A DNA stretch of 64,000 nucleotides, taken from Escherichia phage vB_EcoM_WL-3. Shown in pieces: positions 1,159 to 3,901 of this stretch. The notes beneath the pieces were generated by a model that saw only the letters and a list, made by a program, of their open reading frames with translations, was not told where the DNA came from and did not search any database. Each line of letters begins with the position of its first letter. Position 1 is the stretch's first letter. The position numbers were made by a program, and so were the translations under genes. Location of the stretch: the sequence record MT968995.1. One strand, given 5' to 3'.

Positions 1159-1722
1159 TTATTTACCTAGTTTAGTTATTATAGCTTCGGCAGCAGCTTT
1201 TAGCTTAGATGCGGTGTTAATACGATTTTTAATTTCAGTATACGCATCGCCAAGAACGTCGAGGCTATCAGAATAAACACTTACACTATTGCGTTCGCTA
1301 TTTGAAATAGAACCTTTAGTTTTGCGGTCAAAATCGGTGTACACGTCTTGAAGATCGCGGGCTGCCTTCTTTGCATCATCCAATGCATCAAGAGCTTTAT
1401 TCAAAGCATTAACGTATTTTTTAGTGTCGAACATATTCTTAGAAATTTTAACAGGTGCGCGTTCAGGAGTAGCTAACACAGATTTAGGAACCTGAGCGCC
1501 AGATGCCAATTTCTTAGAAATTTTGAAAAATGCTTTATTGAATTTATTTTCTTGACTCATTGTAAAAGAACTATTATCGATGTTGTACATTTCAATAGCT
1601 TTAGCTTTCCACTTAAGAAAATCGCCGCGGTCTTTTGGATCCAATTGGAAGAATACTTTAGTAAGTTCTGCTTCAGATGGTAATTTTGCTGCTTCGGTTA
1701 AAAATTCGGCATAGGTTTTCAT
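1159..1722 (-). CDS. internal head protein with capsid targeting signal (IPIII-like)
   Basis: N-terminus MKTYAEFLTE matches the T4 internal-protein targeting signal MKTY.EF..E cleaved by gp21 protease; 187 aa. Confidence 0.55.
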   Translation of the reverse strand: MKTYAEFLTEAAKLPSEAELTKVFFQLDPKDRGDFLKWKAKAIEMYNIDNSSFTMSQENKFNKAFFKISKKLASGAQVPKSVLATPERAPVKISKNMFDTKKYVNALNKALDALDDAKKAARDLQDVYTDFDRKTKGSISNSERNSVSVYSDSLDVLGDAYTEIKNRINTASKLKAAAEAIITKLGK

Positions 1723-1812
1723 TTAAAATCCTTGAAATAATTTATCGGTCGGTTATTAATTATTTATTACTTTGTTATTATCCGTAACAGCATTCTCTAT
1801 GTGATTCAAACT

Positions 1813-1840
1813 AAAAAGCCCCAACCTTTCGGTCGGGGCT
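1813..1840 (-). terminator. rho-independent terminator ending the tRNA/stable-RNA transcript
   Basis: Minus-strand AGCCCCGACC-GAAA-GGTTGGGGCT followed by UUUUU. Confidence 0.7.
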
Positions 1841-2150
1841 AAGCCTTGCGGCAACCTTGTCGGGGTTCCACCTGCTAAGGCAAGTGTTTGTACGAAACGC
1901 CGGGATTCGAACCCGGTTATTAAGTAGTTGACGCTACTCAATATTTTTAAAAGGCCATATCTCGACCATATCCGAACGTTCCGTCAAAAACGCTACTCGG
2001 CTTACGGCAAAGATATTTCCTCGAATCGATAATTCGGTGCGCCGTTTCTGCTGTGATGTAAGAGGGCATCAACAAATCATAAAGATTTATTAACACAATT
2101 CCTTACCCAGGGAACATCAGTCCGACGACTTACCGGTAGCGACCCGGTTT
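1841..2150 (-). ncRNA. putative stable structured RNA(s), comparable to T4 species 1/2 RNAs (rnaC/rnaD)
   Basis: No credible ORF; GC-rich with nested helices; tRNA-like T-arm CCGGGTTCGAATCCCGG on minus strand; motif GAGTAGCGT occurs twice; ends at terminator 1813-1840. Confidence 0.4.
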
Positions 2151-2151
2151 C

Positions 2152-2502
2152 TTAATATTCTTTTAAAGCATCAACCTGTTCACGACGTTTACGCCATAAA
2201 TCAATTGCTTCATACGCAGATTCAGCATTTCGAATTGGACGACATTTATATAAAGACTTGTGATTTTGATATTGTGTAGATAACGGAATTTTATCTAAAA
2301 GGTCTTTACGTTCAAAATATTCGTAACCATCTAAACCAAATGAACGATTTTTGAGAAATTGCCAATGACCATATTCGTTTTCGACATAAACATAATCTGC
2401 ATGCTGATAAAGCAAATTAATTACACGTTCAGAAATAACAGTGTCATTGTGATTAAAATAGAATGTTAAATCATGAACTACTAAATAAACATTACCTTTC
2501 AT
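2152..2502 (-). CDS. hypothetical protein
   Basis: 116-aa ORF with ATG start, between stable-RNA region and tRNA-Arg. Confidence 0.45.
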   Translation of the reverse strand: MKGNVYLVVHDLTFYFNHNDTVISERVINLLYQHADYVYVENEYGHWQFLKNRSFGLDGYEYFERKDLLDKIPLSTQYQNHKSLYKCRPIRNAESAYEAIDLWRKRREQVDALKEY

Positions 2503-2520: not shown

Positions 2521-2596
2521 TGGTCGAGGCAGTAGGGATCGAACCTACGACCTAGGACTTAGAAGGTCCTTGCTCTTCCTTCTGAGCTATGCCTCG
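2521..2596 (-). tRNA. tRNA-Arg (anticodon UCU)
   Basis: Hand-folded cloverleaf: acceptor CGAGGCA/TGCCTCG, anticodon loop CTTCTAA, T-loop TTCGATC, encoded CCA. Confidence 0.8.
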
Positions 2597-2600
2597 GATT

Positions 2601-2675
2601 TGGCGGACATGATAGGATTCGAACCTATAACCAATCGCTTAACAGGCGATCGCTCTGCCATTGAGCTACACATCC
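2601..2675 (-). tRNA. tRNA-Asn (anticodon GUU)
   Basis: Acceptor GGATGTG/CATGTCC, anticodon stem ATCGC/GCGAT, loop CTGTTAA, T-loop TTCGAAT, CCA. Confidence 0.75.
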
Positions 2676-2679
2676 AAAT

Positions 2680-2766
2680 TGGTGGGGAGTGATGGAGTCG
2701 AACCACCCGAGTCGCAATGACAATGGATTTACAGTCCACACCGCTACCTCTACGGGATAACTCCCC
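2680..2766 (-). tRNA. tRNA-Tyr (anticodon GUA), type II with long variable arm
   Basis: Acceptor GGGGAGT/ACTCCCC, anticodon loop CTGTAAA, 15-nt variable arm, T-loop TTCGACT, CCA; D-arm irregular. Confidence 0.7.
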
Positions 2767-2778
2767 TAATTCTTAATT

Positions 2779-2853
2779 TGGTGGCCCTGGGTGGAATTGA
2801 ACCACCATCTGGCGATTATGAGTCGCTTGCTTGAACCTTCCAGCTACAGGGCC
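2779..2853 (-). tRNA. tRNA with CAU anticodon (Met, or Ile if C34 is modified)
   Basis: Acceptor GGCCCTG/CAGGGCC, anticodon loop CTCATAA, T-loop TTCAATT, CCA. Confidence 0.7.
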
Positions 2854-2861
2854 AAATTTTC

Positions 2862-3347
2862 TTATTTTATGTAATATTTATTTAAAAACTTTCTAGCTTG
2901 AGTATGGCTAACATTTATAGCATTTGCATAATTTTTAATAAAACCTCGTTCATCCATATTAAAACTTTCTAATATTTTTAATCGTCTAGCTATCTCATCT
3001 TGACTTAAAGTACTTGCATTATTTTTAGAAATTTTTTCTAAGGACTGTACTGAGTGTTTTCGACCATTAAAATTAAAATTTTTAGATTTTGGAGGAAATC
3101 TATCATTTAGTCTCGCATCTTTTGTATTTTGATTATTAGTTGCGCAATATATGTTATTTAATGAGTATGGTCCTTTATCACCAAAACGGCACATACAGTA
3201 TTCATGACCCTTTCTTCCACGCTTATCATAATTTCCCGTTGATTTCCACCAATGCAACCACTCATCAAAAGTTAAATTCCATTCAATGTTTCTACGTATA
3301 GCAGAATTCCGCTGAGAAATATATTTTGCATAATCTTCTTTCATCAC
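2862..3347 (-). CDS. free-standing HNH-like endonuclease candidate inside the tRNA cluster (position of T4 segB)
   Basis: 161-aa ORF; block GHEYCMCRFGDKGPYSLNNIYCATNNQN resembles phage His-Me-finger/HNH motifs; no GIY-YIG motif. Confidence 0.45.
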   Translation of the reverse strand: MMKEDYAKYISQRNSAIRRNIEWNLTFDEWLHWWKSTGNYDKRGRKGHEYCMCRFGDKGPYSLNNIYCATNNQNTKDARLNDRFPPKSKNFNFNGRKHSVQSLEKISKNNASTLSQDEIARRLKILESFNMDERGFIKNYANAINVSHTQARKFLNKYYIK

Positions 3348-3391
3348 AAATTTCTCTACTTATTACATACACTAAGCTAAATCAGCAAAAC

Positions 3392-3481
3392 TGGCGGAGG
3401 CGATAGGATTTGAACCTATGAGTCGCCGGAGCGACTGCCGGTTTTCAAGACCGGTGCATTAAACCACTCTGCCACGCCTCC
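3392..3481 (-). tRNA. tRNA-Ser (anticodon UGA), type II
   Basis: Acceptor GGAGGCG/CGCCTCC, anticodon stem CCGGT/ACCGG, loop CTTGAAA, long variable arm, T-loop TTCAAAT, CCA. Confidence 0.8.
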
Positions 3482-3483
3482 AG

Positions 3484-3557
3484 TCTCCATACAAGGATTT
3501 GAACCTTGGACCTCCTGATCCCAAATCAGGCGCTCTACCAAACTGAGCTACACGGAG
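3484..3557 (-). tRNA. tRNA-Pro (anticodon UGG), CCA not encoded
   Basis: Acceptor CTCCGTG/TATGGAG (with GU pairs), anticodon loop TTTGGGA, T-loop TTCAAAT; 2 nt from tRNA-Ser. Confidence 0.75.
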
Positions 3558-3567
3558 TAAATTAAAT

Positions 3568-3641
<74 letters not shown>

Positions 3642-3646
3642 AAATT

Positions 3647-3733
3647 TGGTGCGAGAAGTGGGACTCGAACCCACAAGGAAATCATTCCGCAGCATTTTAA
3701 GTGCTGTGCCTTTACCAATTTGGCCATTCTCGC
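3647..3733 (-). tRNA. tRNA-Leu (anticodon UAA), type II
   Basis: Acceptor GCGAGAA/TTCTCGC, anticodon stem CAGCA/TGCTG, loop CTTAAAA, long variable arm, T-loop TTCGAGT, CCA. Confidence 0.8.
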
Positions 3734-3734
3734 G

Positions 3735-3807
3735 CTGGGAATAAAGGACTCGAACCTTTGCATCCTGGAATCAAAATCCAGTGCCTTACCAACTTGGCTA
3801 ATTCCCA
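3735..3807 (-). tRNA. tRNA-Gln (anticodon UUG), CCA not encoded
   Basis: Acceptor TGGGAAT/ATTCCCA, anticodon stem CTGGA/TCCAG, loop TTTTGAT, T-loop TTCGAGT. Confidence 0.75.
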
Positions 3808-3876: not shown

Positions 3877-3901
3877 ATAATAACAAATAATTCTTAAAGC
3901 A
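3877..3901 (-). promoter_or_regulatory. T4-type middle promoter (MotA box) upstream of tRNA cluster
   Basis: Minus strand aTGCTTTAag, 12 nt, TATTAT; near-identical to element at 63484-63508. Confidence 0.5.

Follow-up and report, generated by a model that had tools for sequence, protein, structure and literature searches.

Which product, if any, is encoded in a short interval downstream of the transfer RNA (tRNA) genes of Escherichia phage vB_EcoM_WL-3? The question concerns about positions 1812-2155, minus strand, of a 64,000-nucleotide (nt) stretch of its genome (record MT968995.1), and this whole stretch is called the window here. An earlier note, the sequence-only reading, had proposed that the interval gives rise to one or two stable small RNAs like the species 1 and species 2 RNAs of phage T4. 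The proposal is borne out by alignments with T4 and by a covariance-model match. The window aligns end to end with the T4 genes rnaD and rnaC, and therefore the earlier interpretation was correct; the interval almost certainly harbors the orthologues of both genes, at the end of the tRNA operon. The elements as such are already known, the annotation of T4 has included rnaC and rnaD for decades, and they have been recognized as small stable RNAs since the 1970s. Additions of this analysis are the proposed loop-loop pairing in rnaC and its wide distribution outside of the genus Tequatrovirus; in the searchable literature no mention of the kissing loop or of this distribution was found.

Identity of the interval at the end of the tRNA operon

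The tRNA region of this T4-like phage occupies the left end of the window, and its genes are on the minus strand. ARAGORN and the Rfam models identified nine tRNA genes at 2521-3807(-), namely, those for Gln, Leu, Gly, Pro, and Ser at 3807-3392, and those for Met(CAU), Tyr, Asn, and Arg at 2853-2521. On this strand the tRNAs are followed by an open reading frame (ORF) of 116 amino acids (aa) after tRNA-Arg, by rnaD, rnaC, a trailer, and a terminator, and then by a 187-aa ORF (1159-1722). In the annotation of T4 (NC_000866) the species 2 RNA rnaD (71053-71171) and the species 1 RNA rnaC (70908-71046) are located directly after tRNA-Arg. The window is identical to T4 rnaC at 138/139 bases (2029 to 1891, minus strand), it has 111 identities with T4 rnaD in 121 alignment columns (2155 to 2036, minus strand), both over the full length, and 77 positions of the 83 nt that comprise the trailer and the terminator match T4. 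A covariance model built from rnaC homologues has a single match in the window, at 1891-2029(-), with 166.8 bits, an E value of 5e-38, and coverage of all model positions (1-139/139), and it returns the annotated T4 rnaC coordinates exactly. The region is present in 761-805 phage records; 761 were retrieved with megablast, and nearly all of these are Tequatrovirus-like.

The rnaC genes of both phages also agree in their position after rnaD and before the operon terminator, in the T arm, and in the predicted fold, and there is no material difference between the two RNAs. In both phages rnaD immediately precedes rnaC, and the same spacer of 6 nt separates them, but the tip helix of rnaD differs at several positions in WL-3. 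A further difference is that rnaD of T4 starts 2 nt after tRNA-Arg, whereas WL-3 has the 116-aa ORF in between, as have G50 and many other Tequatroviruses. For T4 it has been described that the tRNA cluster is transcribed into a primary transcript of about 1.75 kb, from which the tRNAs as well as species I and II derive, and which ends after the species I RNA (PMC2330249). A northern blot has verified the RNAC of T4, and both RNAC and RNAD were classed as late-accumulating (PMC9697503).

The general properties that the sequence-only reading had ascribed to the interval were also found. The G+C content of 1813-2150 is 47.3%, compared with 36.1% for the window, so that the interval is GC-rich only relative to the phage. 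The predicted richness in helices applies to the rnaC part, which folds better than 200/200 shuffled sequences (z = -4.6), and to the trailer and the terminator, which fold at -36.5 kcal/mol (z = -3.9). The terminator itself is strong, with a G+C-rich hairpin at 1840-1817(-) that has 10 pairs (seven of them G-C) and is followed by TTTTT. The trailer repeats the motif CCCCGAC...AAGGUU, which also forms the stem of the terminator. There is no complete cloverleaf, and ARAGORN predicts no tRNA in 1813-2150. Rfam gave no match to the interval at gathering score; with relaxed thresholds the best hits were tRNA-Sec with 17 bits (E = 2.3) and isrK with 16 bits, which is at chance level. Neither ARAGORN nor Rfam identified a transfer-messenger RNA (tmRNA), and rnaC has neither a tag ORF nor a series of pseudoknots. 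The only ORFs in the interval are those of 61 aa (TTG start), 49 aa (GTG start), and 34 aa (TTG start), none of which is credible.

Four-way junction and complementary loops of rnaC

An RNAalifold analysis of 20 distinct sequences revealed that rnaC is a four-way junction of an acceptor stem, a long arm (nt 9-78), an A/U linker of 10-11 nt, a second arm (arm 2), and a T arm. This fold, with an acceptor stem of seven layers, the T arm, an arm 2 of 10 base pairs (bp), and a long arm of about 70 nt, is supported by covariation. The homologous regions thus have a conserved structure: in the rnaC alignments 92-96% of the cells are paired, compared with 31-48% in slid controls. An alignment of 21 sequences has 95.9% paired cells (35-47% with slid partners) and two-sided changes in 17/49 pairs, while an alignment of 17 sequences, which includes both types of long arms described below, has 92.0% paired cells and 18 pairs with compensatory changes. 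Comparative folding and a covariance-model search had been suggested as checks; the alignments have 17-18 compensated pairs, and 0/500 shuffled alignments reach the observed percentage of pairing, the two-sided pairs and cells, or the covariation score. The model also recovers sequences outside its training set in full length, e.g., those of EnC15 (96 bits) and PEi20 (86 bits).

The single helices contribute differently to this result. Layer 3 of the acceptor stem changes from A-U to G-C in other genera, and in Tegunavirus U-A and C-G pairs replace the two central U-U layers, which results in a perfect stem of 7 bp. The long arm has 23 pairs with 99.7-100% of the cells paired and compensatory changes in five pairs, and it contains a 3-nt bulge (GUA). 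For arm 2 all eight tested pairs exhibit compensatory changes.

The resemblance to a canonical tRNA (RF00005) is restricted to one half of the molecule. The sequence-only reading had noticed a tRNA-like T arm, and CCGGGTTCGAATCCCGG is indeed present at 1900-1916(-), once in the window with zero occurrences expected by chance; however, it is a part of rnaC only and does not belong to both RNAs. As in tRNAs, an acceptor stem of seven layers, two of them U-U, is contiguous with a T stem of 5 bp and a loop that agrees with the T-loop consensus (UUCGAAU), and covariation was observed in both helices. Also the spacers are those of a tRNA cluster, and rnaC is a probable substrate of RNase P. In contrast to tRNAs, rnaC contains a 70-nt extra arm and a linker of 10-11 nt, and it lacks a D arm, G18G19, the CCA end, a cloverleaf recognizable by tRNA finders, and an anticodon loop of 7 nt with U33; the loop of arm 2 has 6 nt, and its closing pair covaries. 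The bases after the acceptor stem are UACA in WL-3 and most genera, UUCA in Tegunavirus, and UCCA in Marfavirus. Inspection of the sequence after the acceptor stem revealed no discriminator base plus CCA, neither encoded nor addable, and therefore charging is not expected. The T loop is not invariant. In one lineage (loci L008, L021, L023, and L037, the latter from Enterobacter phage MY742, as well as IMG/VR contigs) it has the non-canonical sequence UGCAUGC, while the T stem is kept, and Tegunavirus rnaC has a C at position 54. Therefore, the T loop of rnaC is under a looser constraint than that of real tRNAs. An alternative acceptor stem, ACGGAACG/CGUUUCGU, is the basis of 96-nt "tRNA-Phe" calls by ARAGORN and in some GenBank records, and it accounts for the sporadic annotation of part of rnaC as "tRNA-Phe" or "tRNA-Lys". 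It was rejected, because its variable position anti-covaries (G-U in T4, A-C elsewhere) and because the pairing is broken in Tegunavirus.

The combination of an acceptor/T-arm module with parts that are foreign to tRNAs is also found in the tRNA-like domain of tmRNA, in the Y-RNA-like YrlA RNAs of bacteria, and in the viral tRNA-like RNAs (vtRNAs, or TMERs) of murine gammaherpesvirus 68. YrlA and the vtRNAs are processed by tRNA enzymes and are not known to have a decoding function. However, rnaC matches neither tmRNA nor YrlA nor the vtRNAs in sequence or by model, it lacks a Ro-binding stem, and it has no CCA end, while tmRNA is charged.

A second feature of rnaC became apparent from the loops. 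Loop 1 at the tip of the long arm, UUGACG (1987-1982, minus strand), and the loop of arm 2, CGUCAA (1933-1928, minus strand), complement each other exactly. The two loops are perfectly complementary in 32/32 distinct rnaC sequences, 27 of which have the pair UUGACG/CGUCAA, while two (Tegunavirus) have UUGAUG/CAUCAA and three (Marfavirus) have UUGGCG/CGCCAA. These are two independent double changes, which affect different positions. In the 17-sequence alignment the helix of six pairs between the loops is 100% paired and has two covarying pairs. The apical stem of 5 bp covaries at 5/5 pairs, including the closing pair 42-49, and therefore both loops are exactly 6 nt long. In addition, several phages (EnC15, PEi20, Melville, Kosakonia 305, Marfavirus, and others) have "type-2" long arms, the sequence of which is unrelated, but which have the same length and keep the same loop at the same position (nt 42-48), with a total rnaC length of 138-142 nt. 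Pattern scans of viral contigs with loop 1 or both loops unconstrained yielded no further loop versions and only two new loci. It is likely that the two loops of rnaC base-pair and form a kissing-loop lock, as judged from this pattern of substitutions.

A slight preference can be given to an intramolecular pairing; alternatively, the loops could give rise to head-to-tail dimers. The path from the junction via arm 2 (10 bp), the kissing helix (6 bp), and the apical stem (6 bp) is similar in length to the remainder of the long arm (about 20 bp). Because the path lengths match, a "paper-clip" closure of the molecule is geometrically plausible, in the model with the GUA bulge at the turning point, and it would explain the fixed length of the arm. 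The geometry resembles that of HIV-1 TAR-TAR*, in which two 6-nt loops are complementary over six positions. However, TAR-TAR* and the RNA I-RNA II pair of ColE1 are intermolecular or engineered, whereas rnaC has both hairpins in one molecule with a tRNA-like junction. The loop complementarity is a previously unremarked base-pairing, which was seen by comparison across phage genera, and it provides a handle on the function of rnaC.

The sequence-only reading had also emphasized a duplicated motif, GAGTAGCGT. Both copies exist (1931-1939(-) and 1990-1998(-); 0.21 copies expected, two copies in 1/100 shuffles), and in Tequatrovirus they mark the 5' strands of the two kissing hairpins. The duplication is not kept in other genera, where the second copy is replaced by compensated sequences, and the first copy is constant within type-1 arms. 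A role as a functional repeat or in an alternative pairing was therefore rejected; what is conserved is the complementarity of the two loops adjacent to the copies.

The alignments also bear on the possibility that the interval encodes small proteins, either from the minus-strand ORFs of 61 aa (TTG) and 49 aa (GTG) or from the short ORFs annotated as hypothetical in GenBank. Such ORFs exist, and many deposited genomes have hypothetical proteins annotated over the interval. Yet the starts are not ATG, the products of T4 have been characterized as RNAs, and the homologues differ by indels of 1 and 2 nt and by paired, compensatory substitutions. This pattern is that of an RNA and not of a coding region; the coding potential of the 61-aa and 49-aa ORFs was therefore rejected, and a protein product is extremely improbable.

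Scaffold and variable tip of rnaD, and the distribution of both RNAs

All variants of rnaD fold alike into a 5' hairpin and a long irregular hairpin. The basal stem GU-CGUCG/CGGCG-C-AC leaves a 3' overhang of 1 nt, and it is followed by an asymmetric purine-rich internal loop, which is invariant, with GGACUGANGUUCC against CAGCNGAAA. The mid helix GUAAG/CUUAC covaries to AUAAG/CUUAU and AGUA/UACU, with compensatory changes in 4/6 pairs. The 40 nt at the 5' end and the 20 nt at the 3' end are invariant among the homologues, and this strict conservation of about 60 nt suggests a sequence-specific partner. The 5' hairpin (2132-2148) was also picked up by a scan of the plus strand.

Several resemblances of rnaD to known motifs were considered. 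A hammerhead reading (CUGANG...GAAA) was rejected, because there is only a two-way junction, position 9 is U or G and not A, and no Rfam hammerhead model matches. It is also ruled out by the "N7" position, which covaries with the base preceding GAAA (N40, which is U, A, or C, with N107: U-A in eight, A-U in five, and other combinations in four of 17 sequences). The internal loop was compared with a kink-turn, in which a 3-nt bulge is followed by tandem sheared G-A/A-G pairs next to the C helix; tandem pairs G38-A109 and A39-G108 are possible from the sequence and the fold, but the bulge has 4 nt, and two extra A lie between these pairs and the stem. The 3' end ...GCGCACC is not a tRNA-like ACCA end. 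Its final base is not constant (two sequences have CACA), any of G, A, C, or U can follow it, and there is neither an acceptor partner nor a T arm upstream. Rather, this end resembles a point at which an exonuclease has halted, one base beyond the stem.

The apical domain (nt 49-102) occurs in three unrelated versions, which cut across genus boundaries. One of them is common to contig L010, which also has rnaC, to Gaprivervirus ECML-359, and to L032. The independence of the versions from the genus suggests an exchange of cassettes by recombination. With the invariant scaffold and three cassette-like tips common across genera, rnaD is a better candidate than rnaC for a trans-acting regulator that base-pairs with RNAs of the host or the phage, either via the exchangeable tip or via the invariant single-stranded segments, although one or both RNAs might act in this way. 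A convergent single-nucleotide polymorphism (SNP) in rnaD of the T4-like phage BW-1 has been reported from an evolution experiment of 2025 in 3/3 lines that gained virulence on E. coli ECOR34, the relative-growth measure of which increased from 0.17 to 0.98 (PMC12685909). From the published coordinates we calculated that this SNP lies about 41-46 nt from the 3' end of rnaD, which is in the apical hairpin, and we regard it as a hint of a host-dependent role. For rnaC the conserved single-stranded A/U linker would be in accord with base-pairing. However, there is no known target, and in all versions the tip of rnaD is largely double-stranded, so that regulation by base-pairing appears quite unlikely.

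The two RNAs do not always occur together. Distant blastn searches and pattern scans revealed rnaC without rnaD in at least eight other phage genera, including Kagamiyamavirus (EcS1), Moonvirus (KM16, NM4.3), Tegunavirus (TG1), Gelderlandvirus (Melville), Karamvirus (Pet-CM3-4, AS6, EnC15, KaAlpha, fGh-Ecl04), Kanagawavirus (PEi20, Kosakonia 305), and the Klebsiella phages of Marfavirus (EI, F48, pzk-kv8). In most of these genomes rnaC is situated directly between two tRNA genes, typically in the order Trp, rnaC, Gly. The direct placement was found in Kagamiyama-, Karam-, and Gelderlandvirus, where the spacers measure about 5-10 nt. About 5 nt (AAUUA/AACAA-like) separate rnaC from the CCA of the tRNA before it, and the distance to the tRNA after it is about 5-10 nt. 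ARAGORN located rnaC of Moonvirus KM16 between tRNA-Trp and tRNA-Gly, and in Tegunavirus rnaC is just upstream of tRNA-Trp. In the contigs of the lineage with the UGCAUGC T loop no tRNA gene follows rnaC. Homologues of rnaD are present in Tequatro-, Dhaka-, and Gaprivervirus, and rnaD without rnaC occurs in the Dhakaviruses MX01 and IME08 and in one Gaprivervirus. In the Dhakaviruses rnaD is joined directly to the trailer and the terminator that follow rnaC in T4. The trailer is about 90% conserved between Tequatro- and Dhakavirus, despite the different preceding RNAs (Dhakavirus loci L025 and L026, about 1622-1700). This distribution shows that rnaC and rnaD are independent modules.

Could the two elements be functionless relics, i.e., degenerate tRNA genes or a selfish insert in a recombination-prone tRNA region? 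Laboratory hosts reportedly do not require the region for phage growth, there are whole genera without rnaC and others without rnaD, and some lineages have aberrant T loops. Furthermore, homing endonucleases such as SegB sweep through the tRNA region (PMC2330249). All this could be expected for relics, but they would hardly retain the sequence, the length of 138-142 nt, and 17-18 compensated pairs across at least nine genera that infect at least ten host genera. In addition, rnaC is identical to that of T4 at 138/139 positions though the content of neighboring ORFs differs, and the kissing loops have changed in a compensatory manner, which implies that the folded RNA is under selection. The relic explanation is thus very unlikely.

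The annotation of the two genes does not reflect their occurrence. In many GenBank records they are unannotated, or they are hidden under spurious coding sequences for hypothetical proteins or under a 96-nt "tRNA-Phe", a "tRNA-Lys", or similar (e.g., loci L003, L036, L039, L047, L048, L053, and L055). Only a few records name rnaC or rnaD, i.e., those of T4, RB3, T2L, RB27, RB68, Kha5h, and ATK47, and Rfam has no family for either. Most of the deposited T4-like genomes lack a correct annotation. The alignments of rnaC and rnaD could seed Rfam families and put an end to the mis-annotation.

Table 1. Positions of rnaD, rnaC, and the adjacent elements in the window
Feature	Position	Strand	Basis or remark
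rnaD orthologue (T4 species 2 RNA), about 120 nt	2036..2155	-	First bases overlap the TAA stop (2154-2152) of the 116-aa ORF
rnaD 5' hairpin ACCGG-GUCGCUA-CCGGU, 5 bp, 7-nt loop	2132..2148	-	Invariant in 17/17 distinct homologues; in the minimum-energy folds of all variants
rnaD basal-stem 5' strand GUCGUCG, then invariant purine-rich internal-loop strand GGACUGANGUUCCCUG	2108..2129	-	Alignment columns
rnaD variable apical domain	2054..2107	-	Three unrelated versions; helix GUAAG/CUUAC at base
rnaD invariant 3' strand CACAGCNGAAA and basal-stem 3' strand CGGCGCAC	2037..2053	-	Followed by one unpaired C at 2036
6-nt spacer GAAUUA between rnaD and rnaC, rnaC 5' leader (putative RNase P leader)	2030..2035	-	T4 alignment
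rnaC orthologue (T4 species 1 RNA), 139 nt, tRNA-like	1891..2029	-	T4 identity, covariance model
rnaC acceptor-stem 5' strand CGAUUCG	2022..2028	-	Pairs with CGUUUCG at 1893-1899; seven layers, the two central ones U-U
rnaC long arm, at D-arm position	1952..2021	-	AGG/CCU, UAUCU/AGAUA, GCCGUA/UAUGGU, CCGA/UCGG, 6-bp apical stem
rnaC loop 1 UUGACG, apical 6-nt loop of long arm	1982..1987	-	Complementary to loop 2 in 32/32 distinct sequences
rnaC A/U-rich single-stranded linker UUUUAAAAAU, long arm to arm 2	1942..1951	-	AAAAU core conserved in alignments
rnaC arm 2, at anticodon-arm position	1920..1941	-	Stem of about 10 bp; 6-nt loop CGUCAA at 1928-1933
rnaC T arm CCGGG-UUCGAAU-CCCGG	1900..1916	-	100% of cells paired; 2/5 pairs with compensatory changes
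3' trailer, small hairpins CACUUGC-CUUA-GCAGGUG, AACC-CCGACAA-GGUU, GCC-GCAA-GGC	1841..1890	-	Predicted fold
Intrinsic terminator of the tRNA operon, 10-bp stem, GAAA loop, U tract	1812..1840	-	Fold and hairpin scan

Biogenesis, possible functions, and neighboring genes

The explanation that we consider likely for the whole locus is that rnaD and rnaC are stable non-coding RNAs, which are cut from the 3' end of a polycistronic tRNA-operon transcript. Transcription would start upstream of tRNA-Gln (around 3900), proceed through the nine tRNAs, two ORFs, rnaD, and rnaC, and stop at the terminator (1812-1840); the co-transcription with the tRNAs is suggested by the literature on T4 and by the anatomy of the locus. 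RNase P would cut at the acceptor stem to generate the 5' end of rnaC, and the same cut would free rnaD. A seven-layer acceptor stem stacked on a canonical T arm represents a minimal RNase P substrate, and a cut by RNase P at the 5' end would therefore be expected. By analogy to T4, a tRNA-like processing of rnaC is very likely. Exonucleases would trim both 3' ends back to the stems, and the trailer is probably removed from mature rnaC, as its homologue in T4. Because the stop codon of the 116-aa ORF overlaps the 5' end of rnaD, this end would have to be cut out of the messenger RNA (mRNA) in WL-3, presumably by an endonucleolytic cut in the A/U-rich stretch at the stop codon.

As an alternative, the elements could act only in cis, with rnaC as an entry site for RNase P, the stable structures and the terminator as a protection of the 3' end of the precursor, an ordered maturation of tRNAs and mRNA, and the RNAs as leftovers. 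In Tequatrovirus the elements are indeed the last ones of the operon at its 3' end, with only the terminator after them, rnaD abuts the stop codon in WL-3, from the mRNA of which it has to be released, and the trailer is conserved whichever RNA precedes it. However, in several other genera rnaC is in the middle of the cluster between tRNAs, where a protection of the 3' end is needless. Moreover, a processing signal would need neither a long arm with a fixed length of 70 nt nor a covarying loop-loop helix, and the invariant blocks of 40 nt and 20 nt in rnaD exceed the needs of a stem that stops exonucleases. A purely cis-acting role is therefore unlikely.

If rnaC and rnaD are released as stable RNAs, what might they do? 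Reviews and omics papers state that their function is unknown (PMC3014915, PMC9697503, PMC12685909), and it has been an open question for about 50 years. The comparative model makes the function directly testable; it includes the independence of the two modules, the occurrence of rnaC inside tRNA clusters, the four-way junction with its putative loop-loop lock of 6 bp, and the scaffold of rnaD with its cassette-like tip. In the model rnaC would be a tRNA-derived four-way junction, with the long arm in place of the D arm and arm 2 in place of the anticodon arm, which is closed by the kissing complex. Such a molecule would be a compact, nuclease-resistant tRNA mimic that cannot be charged, and it might occupy or recruit a tRNA-binding factor of the host or the phage. 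A function as a decoy or mimic is the best suggestion that we have, but a tentative and somewhat doubtful one. For rnaD a role as a protein-binding or specificity RNA would be more likely. A more far-reaching idea, which we regard as a long shot, is that rnaC is the first representative of a hitherto uncurated but widespread class of tRNA mimics, which occur in at least nine genera of T4-like phages (Straboviridae and related phages, e.g., Marfavirus). In these mimics the equivalent of the anticodon arm would be masked by the kissing loop, and they would serve as a decoy or adaptor for a host factor that recognizes tRNAs, while rnaD would be a host-specificity RNA. If this were true, a tRNA-targeting immunity nuclease or a maturation enzyme would be a candidate host factor for rnaC, and the SNP in rnaD of BW-1 that raises the virulence on ECOR34 would be a hint for the host-specificity role of rnaD.

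Several points weigh against this picture of stable, tRNA-like RNAs with a function of their own. The dependence of the 5' end of T4 species 1 RNA on RNase P is said to go back to older literature on T4, and for WL-3 the cleavage by RNase P, the precise ends, and the modified bases are predictions from T4 by homology. Deletions of the tRNA region of T4 are reportedly viable on laboratory hosts, and therefore any function would be conditional. In the searchable literature up to 2025 we found no function or binding partner of rnaC or rnaD. The folding of rnaD is marginal compared with shuffled sequences (z = -2.1, equaled by 6/200 shuffles), and most of its helices are invariant, so that covariation neither supports nor refutes them. 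The kissing helix of rnaC rests on two compensatory events, and computation cannot separate intramolecular from dimeric pairing. For type-2 arms the unconstrained minimum-energy fold favors a long extended duplex or another fold of the arm over two kissing hairpins. Lastly, the UGCAUGC T loop and the C54 of Tegunavirus fit poorly to a strict tRNA mimicry.

The neighboring genes exhibit additional variation. The 116-aa ORF (2152-2502(-)) belongs to phrog_3355, its TAA stop (2154-2152) lies inside the first bases of rnaD, and it is also present in G50 (locus L002, 2179-2529). On the other side, the 187-aa ORF (1159-1722(-)) had been called similar to the internal protein IPIII of T4. This is true for the N-terminus, which starts with MKTYAEFLTEA and shares the pattern MKTYxEFxxEA with IPIII (MKTYQEFIAEAS), but only the 12 N-terminal residues match, and the remainder of the protein belongs to phrog_2280. 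We take these 12 residues to be the capsid-targeting sequence of the internal proteins of T4. Many relatives (G50, SH-1, and others; locus L002, 2919-3392) have a second phrog_2280 paralogue together with a duplicated terminator between rnaC and the 187-aa gene, and this insertion explains a gap of about 557 bp in blast matches that consist of two pieces.

Within the tRNA cluster, a 161-aa ORF with a GTG start (2862-3347(-), phrog_16521) splits the tRNAs about where T4 has the homing endonuclease gene segB. None of the known endonuclease families in PHROGs matches the ORF, which may be a mobile insert. Compared with T4, the tRNA set contains Met(CAU), Tyr, and Asn, and lacks Thr and the "Ile" of T4; possibly the CAU tRNA corresponds to tRNA-Ile of T4. 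The tRNA-Tyr has 30.2 bits with the Rfam tRNA model, the gathering score of which is 29. Just upstream of tRNA-Gln, at 3877-3901(-), ATGCTTTA, which resembles a MotA box, was found by eye 12 nt upstream of TATTAT, and this looks like a middle promoter of the T4 type, which has been reported to drive the tRNA cluster. The core of T4 late promoters, TATAAATA, occurs 22 times in the whole window, compared with 9.8 expected occurrences, and 0/100 shuffles reach this number; the excess fits a T4-like late-gene region elsewhere in the window.

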